64,000 bases of DNA, taken from NCBI GenBank assembly GCA_965242695.1, contig CBDESU010000002.1:672001-736000 (forward strand). The letters are read 5' to 3'. Under the pieces are notes generated by a model. That model did no database searches and was not told the DNA's origin. It was given only the letters and a program-made list of their open reading frames with translations. Positions 18,049-62,395 of the stretch are shown here, one piece after another. This stretch comes from Cenarchaeum sp. GTDB lineage: Archaea > Thermoproteota > Nitrososphaeria > Nitrososphaerales > Nitrosopumilaceae. The stretch's first letter is position 1. Each line of letters begins with the position of its first letter. The position numbers were made by a program, and so were the translations under genes.

Positions 18049-19755
18049 TCACATGTCCATGTCGCCCATGCCACCCATTCCGCCCATGCCGCCGCCCATG
18101 CCACCCATTCCGCCCATGCCGCCTCCGGGCCCGCCCCCTTCGCCTCCAGGGGGGCCCGACGACTTGGCGGTGGCCACGACATCGTCGATCCTAAGTATCA
18201 TGCAGGCCGCCTCCGCCGCGGCCGAGACGATCTGCGTCTTTACCGCGAGCGGCTCGATAATGTCGCTCGTCTTCATGTTGGCCGTCTTCGCCTTCATGAC
18301 GTCGATGCCGGTCCACTTTTCGCCCTTTAGCTGCCTTGACCGCAGGGCCGTAATGGTGTCGATTGGATCCATGCCGGCGTTCTCGGCCAGCGTGAGGGGT
18401 ATGGACTCTAGCGAGTCGGCAAACTTTTCGGCCGCCAGCTGCTCGCGGCCGACCAGCGACTTTGACCACGCGCGTATCTTGGACGCCGCGTACGTCTCGG
18501 GCGCGCCGCCGCCTGCCACCACGGACGGCATCTCCATGACGTCCTTTACGACCATGATGGCGTCGTGGACGGACCGCTCGACCTCGTCGACCACGCGCTG
18601 CGAGCCGCCGCGCAGCAGGAGCGTCACCGACTTGGGGTGGCGGCAGCCCTCGACGAACACCCAGCGATCCTCCTCGATCTTGCGCTCCTCGACGGTCTCG
18701 GCCGAGCCCAGATCCCTCTCGTAGAGGTCGTCGATGTTGGTTACAATGCGCGCATCCGTGGCGCGGGCCAGCTTTGTCAGGTCGCTCTCCTTTATCCGCC
18801 TGACGGCCAGCACGCCGGCCTTGGAGAGATAGTGCTGGGCCATGTCGTCGATTCCCTTTTGGCACAGCACCACGTTGGCCCCCGCGCCGATCAGCTTGTC
18901 GACCATCTCCTTGAGGATGCGGTTCTCCTCGTCCAGGAACGACTTGAGCTGCTGCGGGTTCGAGATGTTGATCTTTGCGTCCGTCTCGGTCTTGCTGATC
19001 TCGAGCGCCGCGTTGACGAGGGCAATCTTGGCCCCGGACACCTTCTTGGGCATCCCGCCGTGGACGACTTCCTTGTCCAGGACAATCCCCTTGACGAGGC
19101 GCGAGTCCTTGATCGAGCCGCCCGGCTTTTTCTCGACCTTTATGTCGTCGTCGTCGACCTCGTACGTGTCGCCGTCCCTCTCGGCGACGGCAGAGACGGA
19201 CTGGACGACCAAGTCGGACAGGGCATCCGAGTCCTTGCGGACGAGCTTTGTCTGCAGCGACGTCTTTGCCACCTTTGAGAGCATGGCCTGGTCGCCGGCC
19301 GAGACGGCATCGGCGATCTCCCTGAGGTAGCTCTCGGCCATGCGGGCCGCCTTGCGGTAGCCGTCGACGATGATGGTCGGGTGAACGTCCTGCGTGATGA
19401 GCGACTCGGCGTTCTCCAGCAGGGAGCCCGCCAGCACGACCGCCGAGGTCGTCCCGTCGCCGACCTCGTTGTCCGTCGTCTTTGATATCTCGACGAGCAT
19501 CTTGGCCGCAGGGTGCTGCACGTCGATCTCCTTGAGGATCGTCGCGCCGTCGTTGGTGATCGTGACGTCGCCGAGCGAGTCGACGAGCATCTTGTCCATG
19601 CCGCGCGGGCCTAGGCTGGAGTGGACGATCTCGGCGACGACCTTCGAGGCGGCGATGTTGTTCTTCTGGGCGTCGCGGCCCTTGGTCTCGGTCGAGCCCT
19701 CCTTGAGTAGGACTACGGGCATGGTTCCCTTTGACGAGGCCTGTACGTGGCTCAC
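18049..19755 (-). CDS. ths: Thermosome (group II chaperonin) subunit, canonical
   Basis: [32 protein letters not shown] tail. Confidence 0.97.
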
Positions 19756-43457: not shown

Positions 43458-43781
43458 CCGCACCTGTACGCGGCGCCGCGCTATTTACGTGTTGAAGGGG
43501 GCCGTTCGCGCCGCCGCTCGGGCCGCATGCGGCGGGGCCAGGCAGGGCGGGGCGGTGCGTGCGCGCGCGATCCCCGCCGCGCAGAGGTCGAACCTCAAGG
43601 GCCCAAAGGGAACACGCTGGCGCGGCCCACTAACGGCTTTTGGAGACGGACTCCATTTACGTTGCGGCGGGGCCTGGAAGGGCCCGGTTTTACCCGCGCG
43701 CGCACGGGCGCAGGCGCCGCCGCCCCCGATATAGCGGTTGCCGCCCGCCGATCTTTAATACGCCGCCTCGCCACACCGGAC

Positions 43782-46186: not shown

Positions 46187-47050
46187 CTATCCCTTCCTGA
46201 TTCCCGCGAACGGCCTGCCGGCGCATCGGGACCTTGCGGCCGCGACGACGTCGAGCACGGCATTCCTGACGTCGGCGGCGCGCGCCCCGAGCAGCCTGCC
46301 GAGTATGCCGGATCCGTCGCGCATGACGCTGCACCCGCCCGCCACGCCGGCCCGCCCCGACACGGCCGCCCCGACATCGCCGAGCAGCGCCTCGACGTTG
46401 CGGCGCGGCGTCATCACGTATACGGTGCCGACTACGCCGTGCCCTCCCATCGAGCCGGGCGCCGACAAGTCTAGCCTCGACGGCTCGAGCCGCGCCGCAT
46501 CGGCGAACCTGCGCCGCCCGCCGCACCCGAACGCCTCCGTCCCCAGGTCGCATGCATCGTACTTGAACTCCTCGCCCATTGCCGCCCGCCCCGCCGCGAC
46601 GACCTCGGAGCCGACCATGGTCGCCCCGTCGTGCACGTCAAGCCGCACGCGCTGCCTGAACCTGGCCCCCTCGTACGGGATGATCTGGTCGGGGATCATC
46701 TCCAGGTACGCCCCGTCGGCGACCGACACGCGCACGTCCTGGGAGGCAAGGCCGCCGGGATCCATTCCGTACACCCTGGTCGCGCCCTGCGTCGTGACGT
46801 GCGCCATGGACCACGGCCCGGCCGCTATGTCCACCGAGTACCTGTCGCCCTGCAGCATCCCGCCGGCGACCGACGCCACGTACAGGTACGCCATCGGCGA
46901 CCCCGGCCCGTCGCAGTACATGACGCGCTGCGCCGCGAGCGGAACCTTGGCCGAGACCCTCTCGGCCACGGTGCGGCCGCCCGGCCCGCCTGCCGCAAAC
47001 GCCACCTCGAGCCGCCCGGCCCGGCCCGCCGCCTCTCCCCTGCCCGTCAT
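46187..47050 (-). CDS. ureD: Urease accessory protein UreD
   Basis: GGMLQGD, TTQGATRVY, PDQIIPY, GRAAMGE. Confidence 0.9.
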   Translation of the reverse strand: MTGRGEAAGRAGRLEVAFAAGGPGGRTVAERVSAKVPLAAQRVMYCDGPGSPMAYLYVASVAGGMLQGDRYSVDIAAGPWSMAHVTTQGATRVYGMDPGGLASQDVRVSVADGAYLEMIPDQIIPYEGARFRQRVRLDVHDGATMVGSEVVAAGRAAMGEEFKYDACDLGTEAFGCGGRRRFADAARLEPSRLDLSAPGSMGGHGVVGTVYVMTPRRNVEALLGDVGAAVSGRAGVAGGCSVMRDGSGILGRLLGARAADVRNAVLDVVAAARSRCAGRPFAGIRKG

Positions 47051-47745
47051 GCCCCTCCCTCCCCGCCGGCCGCCCTGGGCGGCGCATCGAACAGCAGGTC
47101 GCGCACGATCCGGCCTGCCACGTCGCCGACGCCCTGGTCGGTCGTGCAGTCTACCATGGCAAACGGCCTGCCAGCGCGCACGCGCTCCGCATCGGCGCGC
47201 ATCACGCCGAGGTCGGCGCCGACGTGCGGCGCAAGGTCGATCTTGTTTATGACGAGCAGGTCGCAGTTCTGTATGCCGAGGCCGCCCTTGCGCGGGTACT
47301 TGTCCCCGCCGGCGACATCCACAATGTAGATGAAGTAGTCGGCAAGCAGCGGGCTGAACGTCGTCGTCACGTTGTCCCCGCCGCTCTCGATCAGGATCAG
47401 GTCGAGCTCGGGGTGGTCCCTCTCCATCTCCTCGATCACCGACATGTTGAGCGACGGATCCTCCCGCACCGCCGTGTGCGGGCAGCCGCCCGTGGCGAGC
47501 CCCACGACCAGGTTCTCTGGGAGCAGCCCCTGGTCCGTGGCCAGCCCCGCCCTCATGCGGTCCGCGTCCTCCTTTGATATGACGTCGTTCGATATGATGC
47601 TCATCCTGTACCCGCGAGCGGCAAGGACGGGAACGACCCGCTCGATGAGCATGCTCTTTCCGGCGCCGACGGGTCCGCCTATGCCGACCCTTGGTATGCG
47701 GCGCGGCCCCCCCTCTTCCTCGCGGCCCCCCTCGTTCGCGTCCAT
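47047..47745 (-). CDS. ureG: Urease accessory GTPase UreG
   Basis: GGPVGAGKS, GGCPH, ESGGDN, NKID. Confidence 0.95.
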   Translation of the reverse strand: MDANEGGREEEGGPRRIPRVGIGGPVGAGKSMLIERVVPVLAARGYRMSIISNDVISKEDADRMRAGLATDQGLLPENLVVGLATGGCPHTAVREDPSLNMSVIEEMERDHPELDLILIESGGDNVTTTFSPLLADYFIYIVDVAGGDKYPRKGGLGIQNCDLLVINKIDLAPHVGADLGVMRADAERVRAGRPFAMVDCTTDQGVGDVAGRIVRDLLFDAPPRAAGGEGGA

Positions 47746-47759
47746 TTTGCACCCTCCCC

Positions 47760-48518
47760 TCACGCGGCGAACATCCTCGCGTCCATCCGCTCGTGGTCCA
47801 TCTGCGCAATCTCGGCGAGCGGGGCGAACTGCCACGCCCCCTCCGCCCCCTCCCCGCTTTCCGCGCGGCCTCCGGCCTCCCGCGCCGCCTCGGCCATCCG
47901 CGGCTTGAGGCCGTGTATGATCTCCTGCCCCTCCATGTGGTGTATGATCCCGAGCCGCAGCGCCGCGCCGACCATCGATGCGGCAAAGCCGTACAGCGCG
48001 ACAAGGGCCGCATGCCCTGGGGTCATCCCGAGCGAGCCGCAGCATGCCCCGAGCGCGACGGGATACGCGCCAGAGGCGGCGCCCGACGAGATGGCCCGAT
48101 GGTACCTGGCTAGGGCATTGCCGTCCCCGCCGAACCCCTTGACGCACCTGGCCAGCTGCGCGCCCGACCTTGCCGCCGCCTCCCTCTGCTCCCTGACCGG
48201 CTTGAGGGCCGAGCACCTTTCGTCCAGCTCGACAAGCCCCGCATCGTCGCCGCCGGCCGCAAGCGAGCACGCACGCGCCGCCATGACGCAGTCGCACGGC
48301 CCGACCTGCTGGTCGATCAAGGTGCGGCACAGCCCTGCTAGCGCGCCGGCCGACGCTATCGACCCGTCAAGAAACATCGACTCGAGGCCGTTGGACGTCG
48401 CAAACAGCCCCGACGGAAACATAGAGTCGGACAGCTGCATCGCGCCGAGCAGCTGCATCTCGGCCCCGCCGGCGGCCGTGCCGCCGCCGTCGTTGCGGCC
48501 GCCGTCATTCGTGGCCAC
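47760..48518 (-). CDS. ureF: Urease accessory protein UreF
   Basis: QLSDSMFPSGLFATSNGLE; C-terminal HERMDARMF. Confidence 0.9.
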   Translation of the reverse strand: MATNDGGRNDGGGTAAGGAEMQLLGAMQLSDSMFPSGLFATSNGLESMFLDGSIASAGALAGLCRTLIDQQVGPCDCVMAARACSLAAGGDDAGLVELDERCSALKPVREQREAAARSGAQLARCVKGFGGDGNALARYHRAISSGAASGAYPVALGACCGSLGMTPGHAALVALYGFAASMVGAALRLGIIHHMEGQEIIHGLKPRMAEAAREAGGRAESGEGAEGAWQFAPLAEIAQMDHERMDARMFAA

Positions 48519-48999
48519 GCACGTCCGCCCCCCCGTGCGGCCGGAACACCCCTTCGGACACCTCTAGCTCGACGCCTCCCTCGATGCGGCCAAACAGGCT
48601 CCTGAACACGTCCGCCTCCGAGTCGGCCTGCAGGGGAAACGAGATCGACCCGCCATCGGCCGACACCGAGATCGGCCTGTGCCTGTTGCCGACTATGTGG
48701 CCGACAAGGAACGCAACTGCGTTCCCCGCGCCGCCTGCCGGCCTTGCGGTGGCGATCTTTTCGGGCGCCTGCTCTACCAGTATGCGCCCGCCGTCCCCGC
48801 CGCCTGCATCAAGCAGGTCGCCGTCGCGCAGGACGGTGCCGGCCGGCAGCGACACCGCAATGTCCGTTCCCCCCTCGGTCGTCTTTCTGATCCTGCTCTT
48901 TTCAAGCTCGGCCCTTGTCATCCTGACCCGATCGACGACGTTCCCCCCCTCTTCCTCCCCGGCCCCGCCGCGCGCAACGGACTTGACTGCTACCAGCAT
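48505..48999 (-). CDS. ureE: Urease accessory protein UreE
   Basis: KSRIRKTT...LRDGD...GHIVGNRH. Confidence 0.9.
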   Translation of the reverse strand: MLVAVKSVARGGAGEEEGGNVVDRVRMTRAELEKSRIRKTTEGGTDIAVSLPAGTVLRDGDLLDAGGGDGGRILVEQAPEKIATARPAGGAGNAVAFLVGHIVGNRHRPISVSADGGSISFPLQADSEADVFRSLFGRIEGGVELEVSEGVFRPHGGADVRGHE

Positions 49000-49088: not shown

Positions 49089-49961
49089 CTAGAATGCGCC
49101 GGCGGCCACCCCCGACACTATGGCGATCCCGATTGCCACGCTGGCGATGCCAATGCCTGCCCGCATCGCCCTCTTGGCCCTGTCCAGCCTGGCCGCAAAG
49201 GCAAACGGGAGCGACAGCGTCCCGCTCGCCAGCATCATGCCGGCGACCGAGCCGGCCCCAAAGGCGAGGACCATCGCGATCCCCGCCTCCATGCTTCCCA
49301 TGGCGGATGCGCCCAGGGCGATCAGGCCCCCGCTGCCTGCCAGTCCGTGTATGCAGCCGATCAGGTACGACCTGTGCCCATGCCGGTGCGCACTGCCCCC
49401 GTCCCAGCCTCCGTGCGAGTGCGGGTGCGTGTGGACCGTGCCCCCCGCGTGCGAGTGCGGGTGCGTGTGGACCGTGCCCCCCGCGTGCGAGTGCGGGTGC
49501 GGATGCGCCCCGCCTCTTCCCCTTCCCCGCATCCTCCTCCAAAGGCCAAGCATGCTGGTTCCGGTCCACGCCGACACGCCGAGCGCCACGAGCATGACGC
49601 CGACGGCCGCCTCGAGCCCGTCAAAGACGGCGCCCGGAATGCTCAGCGAAAAGGCGAGCACGCCGAGCGCCACGAGCAGTATGGCCGAGGTGTGGCCGGC
49701 GCCCCACAGCGCGCCGAGGAGCGAGCCGCGCGACAGGGCCCTTTTGACGCGTACGGGATCCGCCTCTTCCCCTCGCCGCCCTCCCGTCCTCCCGTGACCC
49801 GATGCGAGCACGGCCGCCACGTGATCGGGATCCAGGGCGTGCGCCAGCCCGACGACCACCCCAGCCGAGAGGAGCGCGGCAGGCGCCGCCGCGGCCGCAA
49901 CAGCGGCAACCCCCTCCCCGCCTCCGGCCCCCATCGCCTGCGCCACAATCTCGCCGAGCAC
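49089..49961 (-). CDS. Nickel transporter / UreH-like (NiCoT-related) membrane protein with His-rich loop
   Basis: HALDPDH, WGAGH, (HTHPHSHAGGTV) repeats, IHGLAGSG. Confidence 0.85.
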   Translation of the reverse strand: MLGEIVAQAMGAGGGEGVAAVAAAAAPAALLSAGVVVGLAHALDPDHVAAVLASGHGRTGGRRGEEADPVRVKRALSRGSLLGALWGAGHTSAILLVALGVLAFSLSIPGAVFDGLEAAVGVMLVALGVSAWTGTSMLGLWRRMRGRGRGGAHPHPHSHAGGTVHTHPHSHAGGTVHTHPHSHGGWDGGSAHRHGHRSYLIGCIHGLAGSGGLIALGASAMGSMEAGIAMVLAFGAGSVAGMMLASGTLSLPFAFAARLDRAKRAMRAGIGIASVAIGIAIVSGVAAGAF

Positions 49962-49974
49962 AGCAACCGCCCTC

Positions 49975-50388
49975 CTACTCCTCCCCGCGGCCGCCGCCCT
50001 CCGGCCAGAGGCCCTGCCGCCCGATCTCGATTGGCCTGTCTATCGCCACATGGGCGGCCTTGCCGAGCCCGTCCATCTCGAGCTCAAACCTCATCGAGTA
50101 GAGCATCTCTGGCACGCCGACCATTACGTTGTGCGGCTCGAGCATGCCGCGCGCATCCTCGGCTATCCGCCGCCCGTCCCTGCCGTCCCCGACCGACACG
50201 GCAACGTAGGCTGCGAACATCAGCAGGGCATCGTTGACGTTGAGCCGCATGCCGCGCGCGAGCATGTCCCTGATCCTGCCCGCCGAGGCGGCAAGCACGT
50301 CGTCGTCAAGACCCGCATACTCGAACACCCTGCGAAGCGGGGCTGCGTGCGGCCCGGCCTCGGCGGCCGTGACCGCGATGCGCATCAT
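49975..50388 (-). CDS. Divergent urease gamma subunit (UreA)-like protein
   Basis: ARGMRLNVNDAL...DGRD...VMVGVPEML aligns with [10 protein letters not shown]...DGRS...VLPGVPEMI of ureA at 57657. Confidence 0.75.
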   Translation of the reverse strand: MMRIAVTAAEAGPHAAPLRRVFEYAGLDDDVLAASAGRIRDMLARGMRLNVNDALLMFAAYVAVSVGDGRDGRRIAEDARGMLEPHNVMVGVPEMLYSMRFELEMDGLGKAAHVAIDRPIEIGRQGLWPEGGGRGEE

Positions 50389-51500
50389 CCCCTCTTGGGG
50401 ATCACGGCGCGGGGCCCGCCAAAGCTGTACGTGTTCCCCGTCCCCCTGTAGTCGCGCGGCCTGACCGGATCGCCCCCCTCCAGCCCGCGCTTCGTGAGCG
50501 ACAGGCCGGCGAGCAGCTCTACGATCAGCCGCTGGCCTAGGCCCGACGTTATGCCCCCGTTGTACGAACTGTTGTCGCTAACGTCGTACGCCGGCGCGAC
50601 CTCGACGAGGTCCATGGCGAACCTGTCCGGGTCGAACGACTTTGAGAGCAGGCGGATCATCCGTATGCCCTCCCTCGACGTCAGGCCGTTCGGCTCGGGC
50701 TCGCCCGTGCCGGGCGCGTACGCCGGATCGAACGAGTCGATGTCCCAGCTCAGGTACACCGCGTCGGTGCCGTCGTTGGCCCTGTCGGCGATCTCCTTTG
50801 CGATGTAGTCGATGCCGAGCTCCTCGACGTCGAGCATCGTAAACCACTGAAAGTCCTGGTCGGACATCCACTTGTACAGGTCGGGCCCCGGCCAGTACCC
50901 GCGCGGCCCCACTAGCGAGTAGTTCCTGCCCCTCAGGCACCCGATCTCCATGATCCTCCTAATGTGCGCGCCGTGGTCGTACTTGTACCCCGTCAGCCCC
51001 TGCGGGGCGCAGTCCGCGTGGGTGTCGAAGTGGATCATGCCGATGTTCTTGTACTTTTTGGCGAACGCCCGCACGTTGGCGTACGTGATCGAGTGGTCGC
51101 CGCCGAGCATGACGGGGATGCCGTCCTGCTCGAGCACCTCCTTTACCTTTACGGTCATCCTCTTGTGCGACTCGATGACGTCGCCGGGCGAGACCTGCAC
51201 ATCCCCGTAGTCGACCGTCCTGAACGTCCCGAACGGGTCGGCGCCGGTCTCTATGTTGAACCTCTCGTACGGCGGCGACGGTATCGTGGATGCGGCCCTG
51301 AGGGCGCGCGGCCCGTACCTTGCGCCCGGCCGTATCGTCGTGCCAAAGTCGAACGGCTCCCCTATTATGGCCACATCGGGCCTCGCCTCGACGAGCTGCT
51401 CGCGCGTCTGCACCCACGGCAGGTGCAGGAACGTGTTGATCCCGACGAACGGCGCCACGTCGGCGCCGCGGTACGCGTCGCCGTAGAACTCCATGCCCAT
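50385..51500 (-). CDS. Ureohydrolase (agmatinase/arginase superfamily), substrate unknown
   Basis: RPGARYGP, GGDHSI, DTHAD, WDIDSFDP, PGTGEPEPNGL, DLVEVAP. Confidence 0.92.
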   Translation of the reverse strand: MGMEFYGDAYRGADVAPFVGINTFLHLPWVQTREQLVEARPDVAIIGEPFDFGTTIRPGARYGPRALRAASTIPSPPYERFNIETGADPFGTFRTVDYGDVQVSPGDVIESHKRMTVKVKEVLEQDGIPVMLGGDHSITYANVRAFAKKYKNIGMIHFDTHADCAPQGLTGYKYDHGAHIRRIMEIGCLRGRNYSLVGPRGYWPGPDLYKWMSDQDFQWFTMLDVEELGIDYIAKEIADRANDGTDAVYLSWDIDSFDPAYAPGTGEPEPNGLTSREGIRMIRLLSKSFDPDRFAMDLVEVAPAYDVSDNSSYNGGITSGLGQRLIVELLAGLSLTKRGLEGGDPVRPRDYRGTGNTYSFGGPRAVIPKRG

Positions 51501-51606: not shown

Positions 51607-52878
51607 GTGGCGGGATCCGCGGGGGGCGAGTGGGCGCTGATCGCCGAGGGGCGCCGCTGGGAGGGGTACGGCGAGTTTCAAAGGGCCGCCTCGTGCTTTG
51701 AGAGGGCCCTGCGCATCGACGCGCGCAACGCCGTCGCGCTGCTGCGCCTCGGGCACGCGCTGTACGGGTGCGAGAGGTTCTCGGACGCCGAGGCGCGCTT
51801 TTCCGAGGCCCTCGCCGAGGCGCCGCGCGGGATCGACGCGCTGTACGGCCGCGGCCTTGCCCTTGAAAAGCTAGGCCGCTTCGAGGAGGCGGCCGGGTGC
51901 TTTGCGGCCGTCTCCGAGATCGACGCCTCGTACTCTGACGCGCAGTCCTGCAGGGCATCGTGCCTGAGCGGCGCAGGCCGCCACGCCGAGGCGCTGCGGC
52001 TCGTCGACGAGGCCCTAACGTCGCGGCCGGGCGATTCGTCCGCCGCCTTCTACTGCAAGAGCCGCATCCTGGGCAGGATGGGGCGCGCAAAAGAGTCCGT
52101 GTCGTGCCTTGAGGAGGCCATACGCGAGGACTCGAGGCGCTCTGCCGAAAGGTACGAGGAGGGCGCGGCCCTGGCCCGGCGCGGCAGGCACGAGGATGCG
52201 ATCGCGCTGTACACGGAGGCCATCAGGCTGGACCCAAAGAACACGCGCGCCCTTGTCGCAAAGGGCTGGACGCTGGACTTGGCCGGCCTCCCGCCCAAGG
52301 AGGCCGTGGCCTACTTTGACAGGGCGCTGGCCGTCGATCCGCGCTGCCACGAGGCGCTCATCAACAAGGGCATACTGTACGACCGCACGGGCCTCTACAA
52401 GAAGGCCGTCGAGTGCTTTGACCGCGTGCTCGGCGACGATCCGGCCAGCGCAAGGGCCATGTACAGCAAGGCCGTCTCCCTGTTCGGCCTAAACCAAAAG
52501 GCCGCGGCCGTGTTCTTCTGCGAGAGCGCCATCCGGCTCGACCCGACGAACGTAAAGGCGCTGTGCAGCATGGTATGGATACTCGAGCACAGCAAGAGGT
52601 ACGCCGACGCGCTCGCCTACTGCGACAGGGCCCTTGCCGAGGACCCCGGCTACGCCTACGCGGCGAGCTATCGCGGCAAGCTGCTCCTGCTCCTCGGCAG
52701 GCACGACGAGGCCCTCTCGCAGTACGACAGGGCGCTAGAGCTCGACCCCGGCAACCGCACCGCCATCTACCACCGCGACAGGGCCCTCGAAAAGGTAGAG
52801 GCGGAGGAGCGGCGGCGGGGCGGCGGGGCGCCGCGGCTGCGGCGGCTGTTTGGCCGCCCCGGGCCGGCGGCCGCGTAG
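51607..52878 (+). CDS. Tetratricopeptide repeat protein
   Basis: Multiple 34-aa repeats (A..YFDRALAVDP, KG..L, ALELDP). Confidence 0.9.
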   Translation: MAGSAGGEWALIAEGRRWEGYGEFQRAASCFERALRIDARNAVALLRLGHALYGCERFSDAEARFSEALAEAPRGIDALYGRGLALEKLGRFEEAAGCFAAVSEIDASYSDAQSCRASCLSGAGRHAEALRLVDEALTSRPGDSSAAFYCKSRILGRMGRAKESVSCLEEAIREDSRRSAERYEEGAALARRGRHEDAIALYTEAIRLDPKNTRALVAKGWTLDLAGLPPKEAVAYFDRALAVDPRCHEALINKGILYDRTGLYKKAVECFDRVLGDDPASARAMYSKAVSLFGLNQKAAAVFFCESAIRLDPTNVKALCSMVWILEHSKRYADALAYCDRALAEDPGYAYAASYRGKLLLLLGRHDEALSQYDRALELDPGNRTAIYHRDRALEKVEAEERRRGGGAPRLRRLFGRPGPAAA

Positions 52879-53264: not shown

Positions 53265-54977
53265 CTAGTAGTGGTGGTGCATCTGCCGCTGCTCGAGCCC
53301 CTCCTGCTCCCAGTGGCTGTGGTTCCTGCCGGGATCCTTGTGCGCGTGGACCGTCCCGTCTATGTGGCAGTGGGTGTTGTCGATGAGGTCCTTTACGAAC
53401 ACGTCGTCGACGTTGAGGATCAGGGCGGCCGTCTCGACGGCCGACTTTAGCACCTGCCTCTTGACGGCGGCCGTCTCGACGACGCCCGACCCCGACATGT
53501 CGGCGACCCTCCTCGCAGACGAGTCTATGCCGTGCCAGCAGCGGGCGGGGCCCCCGCCTGCCTCCGCCCCGCCGCCTCGCCGGGCGTGCTCCGACCTGAG
53601 CCTGGGCAGGGCGTCGAGCGGGCTCATCCCGACGTTCCCTGCAAGGGTCGCCGGGACCTCCTCGAGTGCATCGGCGACGCGCGATGCGGCAAGCTGCCGC
53701 TTGCCCTCGAGCGAGACGGCGCGCTCCCTGACGTCGCGCGCCATGGCGGCCTCGCATGCGCCCCCGCCGAAGACGACGTACGGCCTCTCGATATAGTTGC
53801 GGAGGACAAAGATCGCGCTCTTTGCCGTCCGGTGGAACTCGTCAAGGTGCTCCTTTGAGACCGCCCGCAGCAGCAGCGTGACCGACCGGGGCCTCTCGGA
53901 CTCGACGAACACCATCCTGTCGCCGCCGACGCTGCGCTCGTACACGCGGGATGCGAAGCCGAGCTCTTCCTCGGATATGTCCTCTACGCTGCGGCACGTC
54001 CTTGCGCCGGTCGCCTTTTCGAGCCACCACAGGTCGTTGTACTTTGCCCTGCGCACGGAGACAATGCCCTCGGCGGCGAGCATCTCTTGGGCGCGCGCGC
54101 CGATCCCCTTCCTTGATATGACCACCCTGGCGCCCGACTCGACGACCCTTCTTGCGAGCATCGCCACATTGGCGCCCTCTTGCAGGGCGAACTGCGCCAT
54201 GTTGTTCGGCGACGTCACTATGATCTCGGACTCTGTCCTTGTCCTGGTCGCCTCCAGCTCGTCGTTGATCAGCAGCACCTTTGCGTCCCTGACGGCGCGG
54301 GGCATGGCCGGGCTGTCCACGGGCTTGTCGATAACGGTCCCCATGACCAGCTCTATGCGCTCCGAGCCGCCCCGCTTTTCCTCGATCTTGATGTCGTCGA
54401 CGTCGACCGCGCCGGCGCGCGCATCGTGCACGGCCGAGACCGCGCCGACGACGGCATCGCGCACGGACTCCCTGTCGGCCATCGAGTCGAATATCGCCTT
54501 GCCCGAGAGGCAGGTGTCGACGAGGCTGTTCATCGTCGCAGCGTCCGCGCCCCCCGCCCGCACCTCCATCCCGTCGAGCGACTCTAGGGCGAACTCGAGA
54601 CCCGCCTCGAACCCGTCGATTATGGATGCCGTCGGCACGCCGGAGGCGCGCAGGTGCTGCGCGTGGCCGAGCAGGGCGCCGATCAGGACGGCCGCCGTCG
54701 CCGTGCCGTCGCCGACGTGCGTGTCGACGGCATTGACCCCCTCGACGACGGCCTTTGCCGCCGGATGGTCCACGTCGAGCTTGCGCAGGAACGCCCCACC
54801 GTGCTTTGTAATCGTCGCCTCGCCGAGTATGTCGATGTACACCTTTTCCATGCCCCTGGGGCCGAGCGACGTCCTTACGGTGTCCGCGGCCAGGCGAGCT
54901 GCCACCAGGTTGTACGCCTGCGACTCGCGCGCGCCGATCCTGGACAGCTCGGGGTTGAATATGTCGGGATACTTCAT
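53265..54977 (-). CDS. Divergent group II chaperonin (thermosome-like) with His/Cys-rich C-terminal tail
   Basis: SLGPRGMEK, DVDHPAAK, GDGTAT, DDIKIEEK, GGGACE; tail HCHIDGTVHAHKDPGRNHSHWEQEGLEQRQMHHHY. Confidence 0.9.
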   Translation of the reverse strand: MKYPDIFNPELSRIGARESQAYNLVAARLAADTVRTSLGPRGMEKVYIDILGEATITKHGGAFLRKLDVDHPAAKAVVEGVNAVDTHVGDGTATAAVLIGALLGHAQHLRASGVPTASIIDGFEAGLEFALESLDGMEVRAGGADAATMNSLVDTCLSGKAIFDSMADRESVRDAVVGAVSAVHDARAGAVDVDDIKIEEKRGGSERIELVMGTVIDKPVDSPAMPRAVRDAKVLLINDELEATRTRTESEIIVTSPNNMAQFALQEGANVAMLARRVVESGARVVISRKGIGARAQEMLAAEGIVSVRRAKYNDLWWLEKATGARTCRSVEDISEEELGFASRVYERSVGGDRMVFVESERPRSVTLLLRAVSKEHLDEFHRTAKSAIFVLRNYIERPYVVFGGGACEAAMARDVRERAVSLEGKRQLAASRVADALEEVPATLAGNVGMSPLDALPRLRSEHARRGGGAEAGGGPARCWHGIDSSARRVADMSGSGVVETAAVKRQVLKSAVETAALILNVDDVFVKDLIDNTHCHIDGTVHAHKDPGRNHSHWEQEGLEQRQMHHHY

Positions 54978-55027
54978 CGCTCGCTCGCCCCCTGCGCCCG
55001 CTCCCGCCAAATGGCGGGCGGGCCCCG

Positions 55028-56644
55028 CTACGCCGCCCTGGCCTCCGCCGGCGCCCGCTGGCCCGGCCTTGCCTCCGGCCTGTCCGCCCCCTCGTCCCCT
55101 CCGGCATCGTCCCCGCCGAGCCCCGACGTCATAAAGCCGCTCTTGAAGTGCTTGAGGTCCTCGCCGGCGATCACATCCTCCTCGGGCGGGACATAGTCCC
55201 TCACGTCGTGCCGGGCCTTTCCGGGGTACCTGCCCTGCGTCGCGAGCGCCACCGCTATGAACACCAGGAACGAGACCATGGCGGCGACCATCGTGTCGAG
55301 CCCGACCAGATCCTCGGGTATGGCAAAGAAGAGGTACAGCCTGAGGAACGAGCCGACGAGGAGGGCGGCCACGGCGGCCGGCATGTTCGACTTTTTCCAG
55401 AACAGGCCGAACGTGAGCGGCGCGAGCGCGCCGGCGAACATGATGTCGAACGCGAGCACAAGGTAGACGCCGGGCGCCGGCACGAGGTAGCCGAGCGTCG
55501 CGCCGGCGGCCATCATCGGTATTATGGCCACGCGCGTCATCAGGAGCAGCCTCCTGTCGCTCGTGCCCGGCCGGCCTAGCCACCTCCTCTGGATTATGCG
55601 GACAGCCAGGTTGCGCGAGACGACGCTCGATATGGCCAGCAGGCCGCCGCTTGCCGTCGACATCGACGCGCCGACGACGCCCATCAGTATGGCGGCCCCT
55701 ATCGCGAACGGCAGGTGCTCGGTCGCCAGTATGGGCAGGACCAGGTCGGGCAGCGTGTCGGCGGGGAGGTAGTAGAGCGCGACGATGCCGAGCATGCTCG
55801 TCGGGACGACCGTGAACAGGGTCAGGGCCCCGCCCATGAAGGCGCCGCGCCGCGCCACCTTTGGGCTCTTTGCGGCAAACACCCTCTCCATAAAGTCGAG
55901 CGCGATGATGTCCCCGAGGCCGAGCGCGAGTATGGTCGCCCAGCTTATCAGCGCGCCGTTGCCCACGTCGAAGAGGCCTGACAGGTCCACCGCCGCTGCC
56001 GGCGCGCTCCCGTAGATGACGTCCCACGGCGCGTCGGCGAACCCGCCGGCGAAGAATATGAAGCCGGCCCAGAACGCGGCGATCGCCAGGTACACCTGGA
56101 AGAGGTTCGTGTACGCCGATGCGAACAGCCCGCCGGCCGAGGTGTACACCAGGACGACCAGCGCCGATATCAGTATGCCCCAAAAGTAGTCTATCCCGAA
56201 TACGGTCTCCATGATGAACCCACTTGCGGCCAGGTTGCCGGCCACCAGTATGGTAAAGCTGATGATCATCAGGACGCTCGATATGCCCTCGGCCCCGTTG
56301 CCGAACCGCCTGAAGTAAAAGTCCGGCAGGGTGATCATCGACATGCGGTTGAGCGGCCGCGCAAAGAACGCGGCCGTGACGAGCAGGCATATGCCGAGCC
56401 CTATGGGGACCGTCGCGCCGGCCCAGAACCCGAACTCGAAGACGAGCGCCGCGTTGCCGAGCGTGGAGTTGCCGTCGACGGCCTGCGCGGCGAGCATCGT
56501 GCCGACCATCACGAGGGGGAGGCTCTTGCCGGCCACGATGAGGCGCTTGCCGCTCTTCCTGACGAGCCTGCCGGCGAGGACGCCGACGGCGAGCGTCAGC
56601 ACGATGAACGCGGTGATCGCGATGCCGAAGCCGTCAAACTCCAT
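55028..56644 (-). CDS. Sodium:solute symporter (SSS) family transporter, non-DUR3 type
   Basis: AGKSLP, TLPDFYFRRFG, YTSAGGL, GASMSTASG; about 13 TM. Confidence 0.9.
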   Translation of the reverse strand: MEFDGFGIAITAFIVLTLAVGVLAGRLVRKSGKRLIVAGKSLPLVMVGTMLAAQAVDGNSTLGNAALVFEFGFWAGATVPIGLGICLLVTAAFFARPLNRMSMITLPDFYFRRFGNGAEGISSVLMIISFTILVAGNLAASGFIMETVFGIDYFWGILISALVVLVYTSAGGLFASAYTNLFQVYLAIAAFWAGFIFFAGGFADAPWDVIYGSAPAAAVDLSGLFDVGNGALISWATILALGLGDIIALDFMERVFAAKSPKVARRGAFMGGALTLFTVVPTSMLGIVALYYLPADTLPDLVLPILATEHLPFAIGAAILMGVVGASMSTASGGLLAISSVVSRNLAVRIIQRRWLGRPGTSDRRLLLMTRVAIIPMMAAGATLGYLVPAPGVYLVLAFDIMFAGALAPLTFGLFWKKSNMPAAVAALLVGSFLRLYLFFAIPEDLVGLDTMVAAMVSFLVFIAVALATQGRYPGKARHDVRDYVPPEEDVIAGEDLKHFKSGFMTSGLGGDDAGGDEGADRPEARPGQRAPAEARAA

Positions 56645-57656: not shown

Positions 57657-57959
57657 ATGATCTTCACCCAGGGCGAGGCCGAGAAGATGCAGGTGTTCGT
57701 CGCAGCCGAGATCGCCCGGCGCCGCCGCGGCCGCGGCCTAAAGCTGAACCACCCAGAGGCCGTCGCGCTGATCGCCGACCACATACTCGAGGGGGCCAGG
57801 GACGGCAGGTCGGTGCCCGAGCTTGCAAGCTCGGGCCGCTCCGTGCTCGCGCGCGGCGACGTCCTGCCGGGAGTGCCCGAGATGATCCGCTCCGTCCAGG
57901 TGGAGGCTACGTTTGAGGACGGCACAAAGCTCGTCACGGTCCACGATCCGATAGTGTGA
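57657..57959 (+). CDS. ureA: Urease subunit gamma
   Basis: [26 protein letters not shown]. Confidence 0.97.
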
Positions 57960-58327
57960 TGCCCATGATCCCCGGCGAGTACTTTCTGGGAGACGGCGAC
58001 ATCGCCGCCAACGAGGGGCGCCCGACCGTCACGGTCAGGGTCGCCAACACGGGCGACCGGCCCGTGCAGGTCGGCTCGCACGCGCACTTCTTCGAGGTCA
58101 ACAAGGCGCTATCGTTCCCGCGGGCCGACGCGTACGGGTTCCACCTGAACATACCGGCGGGCACGTCGGTGCGCTTCGAGCCGGGCGACGAGCGCGACGT
58201 GGAGCTTGTCGGGTACGGCGGGCGCCGCACCGTGCACGGGTTCAGCGGCCTGGTCCGCGGCCCGCTCGACGAGAGGCGCGATGCCGCGATGCGGGCGGCC
58301 CGGGAGGGCCGCTTCAAGGGGGTGTAG
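57959..58327 (+). CDS. ureB: Urease subunit beta
   Basis: [26 protein letters not shown]. Confidence 0.97.
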
Positions 58328-58330
58328 GCG

Positions 58331-60055
58331 ATGGCCCTGACCATACCGCGCAACCGGTACGTAGACCTGTTCGGGCCGACGGCCGGCGACCGCATCCGGC
58401 TTGGCGACACCGACCTCGTAATAGAGGTCGAGAGGGATCTCTTGCGGCACGGCGACGAGGCCGTGTTCGGCGGGGGCAAGAGCGTGCGGGACGGGATGGC
58501 GCAGGCCTCGGGCGCGCCGCGCAGCGCCTCGCTCGACCTGGTCATTACGAACGCGGTCGTCATGGATCCCGTCCTCGGCATCATAAAGGCCGACATCGGC
58601 GTCAGGGACGGCCGCATAGCCGGGGTCGGAAACGCCGGCAACCCCGACATCATGGACGGCGTAGACATGACGATATCGTCGCATACGGAGGTCATCGCCG
58701 GCGAGCACACCATCTGCACGCCGGGCGCAATCGACGCGCACATTCACTTCATCTCGCCGCAGCAGGCGGTGACGGCCGTGTGCGCCGGCACCACGACGAT
58801 GATCGGCGGCGGGACGGGCCCCGCCGACGGCACGAACGCGACGACGTGCACGCCCGGCGAGTGGAACATACGCCGCATGATAGAGTCCGTCTCGGAGTTT
58901 CCGCTCAACTTTGGCCTCCTCTGCAAGGGCAACGACTCGCAGGAGGGGCCGCTGCTCGAGCAGGTCGCCGCCGGAGCGTGCGGCCTCAAGCTGCACGAGG
59001 ACTGGGGCACGACGCCCGCGACGATAGATGCGGCCCTCCGCGTCGCCGACCAGACCGACACGCAGGTTGCAATACACACGGACACGCTCAACGAGTGCGG
59101 CTACGTCGACGACACGATAGCCGCAATCGCGGGCAGGACTATACACACCTACCACACCGAGGGGGCCGGCGGGGGGCACGCACCCGACATTATGCGGGTC
59201 GCCGGCGAGGCCAACGTCCTGCCGTCCTCGACGAACCCGACACGCCCGTTCACCGTCAACACTCTCGAGGAGCACCTGGATATGATGATGGTGTGCCACC
59301 ACCTGAGCCCGTCGGTCCCCGAGGACGTCTCGTTCGCCGAGTCGCGCATACGGCGCGAGACCATAGCGGCCGAGGACGTCCTGCACGACATCGGGGCGAT
59401 CAGCATGATGTCCTCCGACAGCCAGGCCATGGGGAGGGTCGGCGAGGTGACGGCGCGCAACTGGCAGACGGCCGACAAGATGAAGCGCTCGACGGGGCCG
59501 CTGCCCGAGGACATGCGCGCCTCGGGCGGGCGCAACGACAACTCAAGGGCCCTGCGCTACCTTGCAAAGATCACGGTCAACCCCGCCATAGCGCACGGCG
59601 TCTCGCGGCACGTCGGCTCGCTCGAGCCAGGCCGCCTTGCCGACATAGTGGTGTGGTCGCCGCAGTTCTTTGGGGCCAGGCCCAGGATGGTCGTAAAGGG
59701 AGGCATGATCGCGTACGCGCTCATGGGCGATCCGAACGCGTCGATCCCGACGACCGAGCCGGTCATGTACAGGCCCATGTTCGGGGCCCTCGGCGGGGCC
59801 AGGCGGTCGACGTCCGTGACGTTCACGTCGAAGGCGGCCCTCGAGGCGGGGCTGGCCTCCAAGATTGACGCCGGCCGGCCGCTCGTCGCCGTCGAGGGGT
59901 GCCGCTCGATAGGCAAGAGGGACATGGTCCGCAACTCGCTGACGCCGAAGATCGAAATCAACCCCGAGACGTACAGGGTTACGGTCGACGGCAAGGTTGC
60001 CGAGGCCGAGCCTGCCGAGCGCGTCCCCCTCGGCAGGCTGTACAACCTGTACTAG
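58331..60055 (+). CDS. ureC: Urease subunit alpha
   Basis: [40 protein letters not shown]. Confidence 0.98.
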
Positions 60056-60346: not shown

Positions 60347-62395
60347 ATGCTGGCTGGCACGAGGCCCCTCTGGGCCGGCAGGCGGTCCACGGCGACCATA
60401 GCGGCGGCGATCGCCGTCTCCTCGGCGCTTGCGATTGCGGCGCAGGCGCAGCCCGCATACGCGGCAGGCGTCATCGGCGAGGGCTTTACGATCGGCGAGG
60501 TCCTCGACGAGAGCTGGGGCTGGTTCATCGTTGTCGGGCTCGGCGCCGTGTTCGCAATCGTAATCACCGCCGAGACCAAGATAGAGGAGCGGTACCTGGG
60601 CGTCTCGCAGACGTCAGAATGGTTCAACACGGCCGGCAGGGTCATCAAGACGGGCCTGACGGCGGCGGCGATCGTCTCGGCCTGGACGTGGGCGGCGACG
60701 CTCCTACAGTCCTCGACGGTGGCGTACCAGTACGGGATAAGCGGCCCGTTCTGGTACGCGGCAGGCGCGTCCATACAGGTGCTGCTGTTCGGCATACTGG
60801 CCATCGAGCTAAAGCGCAAGGCGCCCAACGCCCACACCTTCTTGGAGATCATCCGCGCCAGGTACGGCGACGGGGCCCACCGCGTGTTCCTCGTGTTCGC
60901 CCTCATGACGAACATGATCGTCACTGCCATGCTGCTGCTCGGCGGCGCGGCCGTAGTCAACGGCCTTACCGGCATGGACATCTCGCTGGCCGCATTCCTC
61001 ATACCCATCGGGGTCATGATCTACACGCTGGTGGGGGGGCTAAAGGCCACGTTCGTCGCCGACTACATGCACACGATCATCATATTCATCGTCATACTCA
61101 CGTTCGTGGCCACCGTCTACTTTGTCAGCCCGCTCACCGGCGGCATAGAGGGCATGTACGACAAGCTCACCGAGGCCGCCGCGCTGCGCCCCGTAGAGGG
61201 CAACGCCGCCGGCATGTACCTGACGATGGCCTCGCTCGGCGGCCTCATATTCGGCATCATCAACATCGTGGGCAACTTTGGGACCGTGTTCGTCGACCAG
61301 GCGTACTGGCAGAGGGCCATCGCCGCGCAGCCGACGTCCACGGTAAAGGGGTTCCTGCTCGGCGGCGCGTGCTGGTTTGCGATCCCCTTTACGCTGGCCA
61401 CTACAATGGGGCTGACGGCCGTCGCGCTCGGCGTCGACCTCACGCCCGAGCAGGTGCAGCTCGGCCTGACCGTGCCCGCCGCCGCGTCCGTGCTCATGGG
61501 CGAGGTAGGCGCCGTCCTGGTCCTGACGATGCTGTTCATGGCCGTCACGTCGGCAGGCTCTGCCGAGCTGATCGCCGTCTCGTCGCTGATCACGTACGAC
61601 GTGTACCGCACGTACAAGAACCCGAACGCGTCGGGCAAGAAGCTGCTAAAGGTCTCGCGCGCGACAATCGTCGGGTTCGGGATCGGTATGGGCGGACTCG
61701 CCGTCATACTGCTCAGCATGGGGCTGAGCCTGGGGTTCGTGTACCTGGCCATGGGCGTGCTCATCGGCTCGGCCGTCATACCCATCGCCCTGACCATAAC
61801 GTGGAAGCGCACCGACAAGGTCGCAGCCACCGCGGGCGCGATCATCGGCCTGTTCGTGGCGCTCGGCACGTGGATCGGCGTGGCCGCCTCGCTGCCGGCG
61901 TACGGCGGCACGGTCTCGCTTGCGAGCCTCGGCGACAACTATTCGATGCTGTTTGGCAACATCGCCGGCATACTGACGGGCGGCGCGATCGCCGGCCTCG
62001 GGAGCCTGGCTCGGCGGACGACGTTTGACTGGAGCCTCATGCGCGAGCGCATAAAGCTCGTCGACATCTCGCAGGCCGAGGTGCGCCAGCTAGAGGAGGA
62101 CGAGGAGACGCTGGCCAAGGCGTTCAAGTTCAGCCTCCGCGGCGGCGGCATCATGACGCTCGTGCTGATCATCGCGTGGCCCATGCCGCTGTTCTTTGCG
62201 GGGTACGTGTTCGACATCGCGTTCTACTCGTTCTGGGTCGGCATCTCGATCGTGTGGGTGAGCGCCGCGACGTTCTTCATCGTCGGGCTCCCGATCATCG
62301 AGGCGCGGCACGGCATCGCAAAGGTGGCGCGCAGGCAGCGCGCGCCGCCGGCCTCGGAGGGCAACGGCGGAAGCGGAGGCGAGGACGGCAGGTGA
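60347..62395 (+). CDS. DUR3-like urea active transporter
   Basis: VSAWTWAATLLQSS, GNFGTVFVDQAYWQ, SAGSAELIAVSS. Confidence 0.93.
   Translation: MLAGTRPLWAGRRSTATIAAAIAVSSALAIAAQAQPAYAAGVIGEGFTIGEVLDESWGWFIVVGLGAVFAIVITAETKIEERYLGVSQTSEWFNTAGRVIKTGLTAAAIVSAWTWAATLLQSSTVAYQYGISGPFWYAAGASIQVLLFGILAIELKRKAPNAHTFLEIIRARYGDGAHRVFLVFALMTNMIVTAMLLLGGAAVVNGLTGMDISLAAFLIPIGVMIYTLVGGLKATFVADYMHTIIIFIVILTFVATVYFVSPLTGGIEGMYDKLTEAAALRPVEGNAAGMYLTMASLGGLIFGIINIVGNFGTVFVDQAYWQRAIAAQPTSTVKGFLLGGACWFAIPFTLATTMGLTAVALGVDLTPEQVQLGLTVPAAASVLMGEVGAVLVLTMLFMAVTSAGSAELIAVSSLITYDVYRTYKNPNASGKKLLKVSRATIVGFGIGMGGLAVILLSMGLSLGFVYLAMGVLIGSAVIPIALTITWKRTDKVAATAGAIIGLFVALGTWIGVAASLPAYGGTVSLASLGDNYSMLFGNIAGILTGGAIAGLGSLARRTTFDWSLMRERIKLVDISQAEVRQLEEDEETLAKAFKFSLRGGGIMTLVLIIAWPMPLFFAGYVFDIAFYSFWVGISIVWVSAATFFIVGLPIIEARHGIAKVARRQRAPPASEGNGGSGGEDGR

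Follow-up and report, generated by a model that had tools for sequence, protein, structure and literature searches.

What is a third thermosome gene doing in the urease locus of an ammonia-oxidising archaeon, and what could a chaperonin do there that has exchanged both its hydrolysis residues and its tail? The question arises from a 64,000-nucleotide stretch of a Cenarchaeum sp. genome (GenBank assembly GCA_965242695.1, contig CBDESU010000002.1, positions 672,001 to 736,000), hereafter called the window, in which a minus-strand gene at 53265..54977 encodes a protein of 570 amino acids (followed by a stop codon) that we call ThsL. It is a tail-bearing thermosome paralogue, the form found in the window being designated type A, and is one of three Cpn60_TCP1 genes in the genome, the other two being canonical. 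A first-pass annotation had described it as an apparently ATPase-dead group II chaperonin with a metal-binding tail and had suggested that it serves urease or the neighbouring ureohydrolase. As set out below, the observation is real, conserved, and unusual; ThsL is a diverged thermosome paralogue of ammonia-oxidising archaea, and on sequence evidence its proposed function is plausible, with the partner corrected from urease to a cassette containing the ureohydrolase.

The coordinates originally assigned to the gene were right, and its strand is minus: the minus-strand reading of 53265-54977 is uninterrupted, the plus-strand frame is riddled with stops, and the altered strings first reported (TITKHGGAFL, GDGTAT, GMEK, and HRTAKSA) are all found in the 570 amino acid translation. 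The same open frame continues upstream to give 1041 amino acids (53265-56390, minus strand), passing over a symporter gene in another frame. Because the G+C content of the window is ~68%, and many long spurious open reading frames exist on both strands, this extension was judged to be an artefact, and the true start is taken as the Met at 54977, since homologues begin there (MKYPD). Translation, Pfam, the PDB, and an AlphaFold2 (AF2) model all agree on a chaperonin. Residues 31-528 match Pfam PF00118 (Cpn60_TCP1) with 424 bits and an E value of 1e-126 (the canonical copy scores 615 bits), and solved thermosomes in the PDB are matched down to E 4.5e-102, with 35-41% identity over the full length to the canonical thermosome and to the Methanococcus maripaludis chaperonin Mm-cpn. 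ThsL falls under the cut-off of the NCBIfam thermosome subfamily TIGR02339 (441.4 bits against 671.1) and only narrowly passes that of the thermosome_alpha equivalog (454.3 against 450). Pfam and NCBIfam searches gave Cpn60_TCP1 only, with no homology to UreD, UreE, UreF, or UreG.

The comparator within the window is a canonical thermosome subunit at 18049..19755 (minus strand), which scores 784.7 bits against NCBIfam thermosome_beta and ends in a GGM-repeat tail; ThsL is 40% identical to it over 515 residues, and the lid region (the helical protrusion) is ungapped. The AF2 model of ThsL, built on a 70-row alignment, has a mean predicted local distance difference test score (pLDDT) of 88.1 and a predicted template modelling score (pTM) of 0.87, and the body is confidently predicted; the lid, aligned without deletion, is modelled with lower confidence (62-72). 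ThsL thus keeps the whole group II chaperonin fold, including the lid and most of the nucleotide-binding residues. In common with the canonical thermosome and Mm-cpn, it has the three-domain fold, the lid, the GDGT loop, the lysine of the nucleotide-sensing loop, and the GGG..E motif. It differs from the canonical protein in having H59 and S387 in place of the aspartate pair, in an Asn to Lys and a Glu to His substitution, and in a 44-residue His-rich tail replacing GGM; moreover, its gene is borne on a cassette, whereas the canonical thermosome is a core gene.

Residue correspondences were determined relative to the solved structure of Mm-cpn (5w79_A). His59 (codon 54801..54803, minus strand) lies opposite the catalytic Asp60 of Mm-cpn, TNDG having become TKHG, and Ser387 (53817..53819, minus strand) lies opposite the catalytic Asp386. 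These replacements are not peculiar to the window. Among 5.8 billion proteins searched, 2648 matched, and the best 120 of these, 56-99% identical over the full length, constitute the type A alignment used here (the window's own protein included). At the first catalytic position, 119 of the 120 have His and one has Tyr; at the second, 113 have Asn and seven have Ser; and none (0/120) has a catalytic Asp at either position. The loss of both catalytic aspartates, first noticed by comparison with the canonical copy, is thus a property of all 120 type A proteins. Close by, His382 (53832..53834, minus strand; ERS having become HRT) is a derived residue common to both types of tail-bearing protein, being His in 120/120 type A and in 8/9 of the type B proteins described below, and Glu in 52/66 other chaperonins.

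GDGT, Lys160 of the nucleotide-sensing loop, G404, G406, and E409 are invariant or nearly so over the 120 sequences. Some drift is nonetheless apparent around them: the GDGTTS loop varies at its last two positions (T in 50, S in 26, and V in 26 among the residues listed for the fifth; S in 87, T in 19, and A in 14 for the sixth), and the GGG of the GGGxxE motif is GAG in 47/120. Because GDGT, the nucleotide-sensing-loop lysine, and GxG..E are kept, nucleotide binding by ThsL may survive, and the term ATPase-dead can be retained only in part: the residues for hydrolysis are lost and most of those for nucleotide binding are not, so that hydrolysis-dead is the better description of a protein whose predicted nucleotide binding may persist. 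The D386A mutant of Mm-cpn is described as binding ATP, not hydrolysing it, and being locked open (PMC5019054, as far as its available text goes).

The second departure from a thermosome is at the C-terminus, where the GGM tail is replaced by a His/Cys-rich tail of 44 residues (527-570; 53268..53399, minus strand) with nine His and one Cys within 35 residues, as originally noted. That the tail is under strong constraint was evident on comparing 16 diverse type A proteins, in which the last 40 residues had a mean identity of 88%, versus 61% for the body; all 120 best type A homologues carry a nearly identical tail. Its pLDDT in the AF2 model is 36-50, and it is therefore not expected to fold on its own. 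In a six-frame translation of the whole genome, the strict motif H.H.[DEN]G..H.H has a single occurrence, which is the ThsL tail, and in a search of 1.8 billion representatives at 50% clustering, the matches that reached the last residue of the query were confined to type A and type B cluster representatives plus one fragment. Two chaperonin-like proteins of ~1050 amino acids in the representative library (P0128 and P0131) matched the query in two stretches and may be tandem-fused chaperonins. A second tail-like fragment was also found in one genome (G141:C8:80579-80668), separate from that genome's full ThsL; it is 67% identical over 30 residues and lies in a 61 amino acid frame with an in-frame TGA.

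Relative to its counterpart in the congener G344, ThsL has a dN/dS (ratio of nonsynonymous to synonymous substitution rates) of 0.21 over 561 codons; by the same comparison, values were 0.08 for ureC, 0.04 for the ureohydrolase gene, and 0.21 for a TPR gene of the same locus. Pseudogene-like decay, with a dN/dS near 1, was the outcome that the first-pass annotation had set against its own proposal. It was not seen: decay is ruled out by the dN/dS of 0.21, the intact frame, and the presence of the changes in all 120 homologues.

A sister form, type B, is found in family f3 and in a few genera of f1, the window's own family. Its body is only 38-47% identical to ThsL, but its tail is a clearly related variant, e.g., YYTHTHSDGTTHSH...HDHFDKLGKQQRPMHHYY, and the derived Asn to Lys and Glu to His changes beside the catalytic positions are common to both types. 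Of nine type B proteins, four keep both catalytic aspartates, two keep only the first, and three keep only the second; because retention is so mixed, hydrolysis looks dispensable across the tail-bearing clade. The alignment and tree with archaeal thermosomes that had been suggested at the outset was run with 91 chaperonins and placed types A and B in one distinct clade, with a Shimodaira-Hasegawa-like approximate likelihood ratio test (SH-aLRT) support of 100 and a stem of 0.52; type A (100) was nested among type B, and the canonical thermosomes of the same archaea were placed near the clade. Removing the tail columns changed neither the clade nor the nesting. The trees were quick LG+G4 reconstructions with midpoint rooting, and the direction of change is thus inferential, but the simplest reading of the sequences is that the tail and the two neighbouring substitutions would have come first and that hydrolysis was lost later, several times, and completely in type A.

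Which of its neighbours does this chaperonin accompany? The 44-residue tail alone was used as a query against 401 genomes of the class (two of them, G283 and G364, unpublished). Ureohydrolase orthologues were called at E <= 1e-60 (71-100% identical), and only strong ureC matches were counted, 20 genomes with a best match of E >= 1e-5 being dropped. The tail is present in 109/401 genomes: 70/223 in f1, in addition to the genome of the window itself, and 38/78 in f3, whereas none was found in the 99 genomes of the 18 other families of the class; the f1 relatives that are named belong to Nitrosopumilus, Cenarchaeum, or Nitrosarchaeum. Ureohydrolase was found in 118/401 genomes and strong ureC in 176/401. 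All but one (108/109) of the tail-positive genomes have the ureohydrolase, and 104 have ureC, the five without it being drafts that are 88-99% complete. Conversely, 72 of the 176 urease-positive genomes gave no tail match, including the complete, single-contig genomes G066 and G149 of the same genus. Ten ureohydrolase-positive genomes lacked a tail match; of the five that were searched again, G306 was positive with a type B query. ThsL is thus gained and lost together with the ureohydrolase and not with urease as such. The first-pass annotation had named both as possible clients and had proposed following their co-occurrence; the outcome bears out the ureohydrolase and fails to bear out urease.

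Two further observations belong with these counts. All six of the genomes with ureohydrolase but no ureC are draft assemblies. G208, the only tail-positive genome that lacks the ureohydrolase, is complete and has urease; its tail match (locus L089, G208:C1 9794-9973) is what is left of a ThsL C-terminus, 64 amino acids long, next to a permease gene that is still intact, and it looks like a cassette in decay.

The same distribution bears on a quite different explanation of ThsL, in which it joins the two canonical thermosome subunits in mixed rings, has a regulatory or specialising role there, and alters ring cooperativity or client choice, much as the subunits of CCT, the eukaryotic cytosolic chaperonin, differ in their use of ATP. 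The presence of two canonical paralogues in the genome, the ungapped alignment of ring-interface regions, and the kept nucleotide-binding residues would all suit such a subunit. A long stem branch (0.52) and an identity of only ~40% to the canonical subunits would not, and ThsL comes and goes with the cassette when the canonical subunits are always present; we consider co-assembly very unlikely.

ThsL does lie within a urease locus, as originally stated, between ureE (48505-48999) and ureA (57657-57959). On the minus strand, ureD, ureG, ureF, and ureE occupy 46187..48999 (Pfam UreD, cobW/UreG, UreF, and UreE_N; the inner boundaries are approximate), and ureA, ureB, and ureC are on the plus strand at 57657..60055 (Urease_gamma, Urease_beta, Urease_alpha, and Amidohydro_1). 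The insertion that separates ureE from ureA comprises six genes: a membrane protein that has a His-rich loop and, as judged by language-model features, is probably a metal permease of the NicO/RcnA type (49089..49961, minus); a small urease-gamma-like protein, or UreA paralogue (49975..50388, minus; Pfam Urease_gamma, E 8.8e-8); an arginase-family ureohydrolase (50385..51500, minus; Pfam Arginase PF00491, E 1.1e-80); a TPR-repeat protein (51607..52878, plus; Pfam TPR families, 40-58% identical across cassettes); ThsL; and, 50 bp upstream of ThsL, a Na/solute symporter of the SSF family (55028..56644, minus; Pfam SSF, E 3.7e-26).

The block from the membrane protein to ThsL, together with the symporter, recurs across 80 related loci, in most of which the symporter adjoins ThsL. 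In several of them (L004-L008 and others), no ure gene lies within 10 kb of the cassette and its ThsL gene, and in three cassette-negative, urease-positive relatives, ureE and ureA are adjacent, the outer transporters are kept, and 0/6 of the cassette genes are present. Since the block recurs apart from ure genes and is wholly absent from these three urease loci, the six genes behave as one cassette.

Several side features of the locus were also apparent. It contains three SSF transporters, the outer two being an SSF fusion to a universal stress protein domain (SSF-Usp; 43527-46181, plus) and a further SSF transporter (60347-62395, plus), both assigned by Pfam; where the cassette is absent, these two are still found with urease, and the transporter between them is cassette-specific. 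In most loci, the gene immediately downstream of the ureohydrolase is the urease gamma paralogue, of 137 amino acids (49975-50388). In three loci of a further family, f5 (L087, L088, and L093), the ureohydrolase, UreA-like, and permease genes immediately precede ureABCEFGD, all on one strand in an operon-like arrangement; no tail-bearing chaperonin was found in those three genomes.

The suggestion that ThsL serves urease, either by stabilising it or by supplying its nickel, was made both by Abby et al. in 2018 (stabilisation; PMC5797428, in the part of that paper available to us) and in the first-pass annotation. The gene does lie between ureE and ureA, ureC is present in 104 of the 109 tail-positive genomes, and in L041, L062, L065, L085, L090, and L092, ThsL directly follows ureD or precedes ureA. 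A dedicated urease factor is nevertheless hard to reconcile with 72/176 urease-positive genomes lacking the tail, G066 and G149 among them being complete, with the intact urease loci of the three cassette-negative genomes, or with cassettes that lie more than 10 kb from ure genes. It had also been proposed that the ThsL tail compensates for a short tail on the local UreE. This is contradicted by the UreE C-termini, which have the same short HGHE/HEH stretch in five cassette-positive, three cassette-negative, and one f5 loci, and thus end alike with or without the cassette. Overall, urease is in our judgement an unlikely client.

The ureohydrolase is the better-supported candidate partner. Among solved structures, it is closest to guanidinobutyrase (3nio), "putative agmatinase 2" (9fek and 7esr), guanidinopropionase, and metformin hydrolase (8snf), and it falls under both of the NCBIfam agmatinase cut-offs. 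Its sequences from three archaeal families are 71-99% identical, and the mean column identity is 87% over 18 sequences; the enzyme is more conserved than UreC (about 70-77%). D134, H135, D158, H160, D162, D252, and D254, which we take to be the ligands of a binuclear metal site, are invariant in those 18 sequences. The available text of the relevant papers describes metformin hydrolase as Ni-dependent (PMC10927577, PMC11271267) and refers to the archaeal enzyme as agmatinase/SpeB, clustered with a symporter (PMC11131427). In the accessible part of their report, Palatinszky et al. state that ammonia-oxidising archaea have no guanidine-degradation genes (PMC11410670), and we therefore did not adopt a guanidinase identity for the ureohydrolase.

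The membrane protein of the cassette gave no Pfam or NCBIfam match, NicO (PF03824) included, even at E 10. Its language-model features resemble those of NicO clusters (similarity 0.96) and of an archaeal "putative high-affinity nickel transporter" cluster (0.95), which can be regarded only as a lead. Its His-rich loop has 11-13 His in the pattern HxHPHxHx[DN]GxxH[TS]HxHxH, conserved in 56 loci, and is of the same HxHxDGTxHxH type as the ThsL tail; in L061, the permease loop carries DGTTHSH, a string identical to that in type B tails. In the window's putative permease, the loop has a tandem duplication of a 13-residue unit, HPHSHAGGTVHTH, that is single in relatives. The permease was found in 3/3 cassette-positive f1 genomes and was not found in any of five complete urease-positive, cassette-negative genomes. 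ThsL is thus linked both to a nickel enzyme, through the urease locus, and to a NicO-like permease within its own cassette. The role in metal handling first proposed for the tail gains support from this context, a NicO-like permease with the same His motif; its attachment to urease does not.

A client-free metal store or buffer, i.e., a multimeric cage of His tails holding Ni or Zn for the cell in the manner of small His-rich storage proteins, could draw on many of the same facts: each tail has nine His and one Cys, a number that any ring would multiply by its size, the same cassette encodes a metal permease, and the loss of hydrolysis suits a static role. However, the tail, at 88% identity, is no simple run of His but a motif whose order hardly varies, which a store would not require. 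Nor would a store have any need of invariant apical residues such as NDLWWLEKATGA (residues 314-325, a helix in the model), which differ from the canonical copy, and tight tracking of one enzyme gene is not expected of it. We regard a mere store as improbable.

What, then, might ThsL do? We give roughly even chances to the proposal, drawn from sequence comparisons, that it is an open-state holdase and metal-delivery chaperone and serves as a dedicated maturation factor for the cassette ureohydrolase. In outline, ThsL would bind nucleotide without cycling and would stay open like Mm-cpn D386A, making it a holdase or scaffold and not a folding machine. Its 44-residue tails, sited in the open cavity, would bind a divalent metal. 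Nickel appears the most likely in view of the kind of permease, the setting in a urease locus, and the Ni dependence of relatives of the ureohydrolase; Zn, Co, or Mn would be the other candidates. Where a permease gene is present, the tails would take metal from its matching His loop by ligand exchange and would deliver it to the apo-ureohydrolase at its binuclear site while the altered apical helix NDLWWLEKATGA holds the enzyme; that this helix is the client site may be so but is speculation from the model. The ureohydrolase would then convert a guanidino compound, imported by the cassette symporter, into urea, from which the flanking urease would produce ammonia. Since the enzyme occurs without ThsL and ThsL occurs without the permease, no single step can be obligatory in all lineages. 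Co-folding of the TPR protein, the ureohydrolase, and the 44 amino acid tail gave a score of 0.01 (mark 0.32), which speaks neither way.

Several points weigh against the proposal. The tail is unstructured in the AF2 model, and Mn is the usual metal of arginase-family enzymes. Family f3 has ThsL and the ureohydrolase, yet neither the two f3 genomes tried nor the f3 loci yielded the permease, and a permease-to-tail hand-off therefore cannot be general. Three f5 genomes (G174, G192, and G266) and G284 have the ureohydrolase but, with a full-length query, only matches of canonical length, from which it follows that ThsL is not strictly required. Urease is itself present in 104/109 tail-positive genomes, and a cassette-dependent role in urease maturation is inseparable by co-occurrence from the role we favour. 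Finally, genomes that are related do not count as independent cases, and there were therefore fewer events than the co-occurrence counts suggest. The boldest form of the holdase and metal-delivery proposal is that a group II chaperonin has been turned into a metallochaperone, a hydrolysis-dead open ring whose HxHxDGTxHxH tails would move Ni(II) from a permease loop into a new Ni-dependent guanidino-compound hydrolase; we advance it only tentatively, as possible but rather doubtful.

Known systems offer partial parallels to ThsL. The engineered D386A protein (PDB 3j02, "Lidless D386A Mm-cpn variant") is without the same catalytic Asp; ThsL, however, is natural and conserved, is also without D60, and has further changes in the pocket and a new tail. 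Helicobacter pylori HspA, a GroES with a His/Cys-rich C-terminus, and mycobacterial GroEL1 have His-rich tails, and HspA is linked to a nickel enzyme. These are group I proteins with low-complexity tails and normal chaperonin function, whereas ThsL belongs to group II, has an ordered tail motif, and has lost its hydrolysis residues. The animal proteins BBS6, BBS10, and BBS12 are divergent group II paralogues dedicated to the assembly of one specific complex, some of them with degenerate ATP sites; unlike ThsL, they are eukaryotic, without a metal-binding tail, and belong to a different clade. A link between H. pylori Hsp60 and urease is cited by Abby et al. (PMC5797428, available text), and nickel chaperones in the gene regions of Ni-dependent arginase-family enzymes are mentioned by Palatinszky et al. 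(PMC11410670, available text). The HypA/HypB-like chaperones of guanidine and metformin hydrolase operons are, like ThsL, encoded beside arginase-family enzymes, theirs being Ni-dependent; they are small GTPase or zinc-finger chaperones with no homology to ThsL, and no HypA/B-like gene was found among the proteins scanned in the archaeal cassette.

An extra chaperonin near urease has been remarked on before. In the available part of their paper, Abby et al. (2018) report that the urease loci of Nitrosocaldus and the soil group have a conserved Hsp60 homologue, which they state was not found in Nitrosopumilales (PMC5797428); here, the tail is found in 70/223 f1 (Nitrosopumilaceae-type) genomes, and there are 80 named loci. 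Zhong et al. (2020), again in the text available, report that a hadal genome has an additional thermosome, distinct in phylogeny, close to a symporter and urease, and suggest adaptation to pressure. The literature search, which covered the sources in part, turned up no account of the catalytic-residue loss, the conserved tail, or the division into types A and B, nor any of the wide Nitrosopumilaceae-type presence, the cassette, the link to the ureohydrolase, or the motif shared with the permease. Within those sources, then, the extra thermosome near urease is known, and the residue losses, the tail, and the cassette link are new.

The matched motif in the permease loop and the chaperonin tail suggests a hand-off of metal, for which the same partial literature search gave no nickel precedent. 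ThsL and its type A relatives constitute a natural, conserved group of group II chaperonins lacking both hydrolysis residues, with intermediate forms that lack only one, and the question of a chaperonin role without an ATP cycle is thereby directly testable. Ammonia-oxidising archaea are of course among the most abundant microbes of the oceans and soils, and which nitrogen compounds they can use is a live question. Of the genomes sampled from the two main families, between about a quarter and a half have the cassette. It points to a route from a guanidino compound through urea to ammonia for which the only annotation to date is "agmatinase". If the metallochaperone proposal is true, this would be a second organic-nitrogen route feeding urease in abundant marine and soil ammonia oxidisers.

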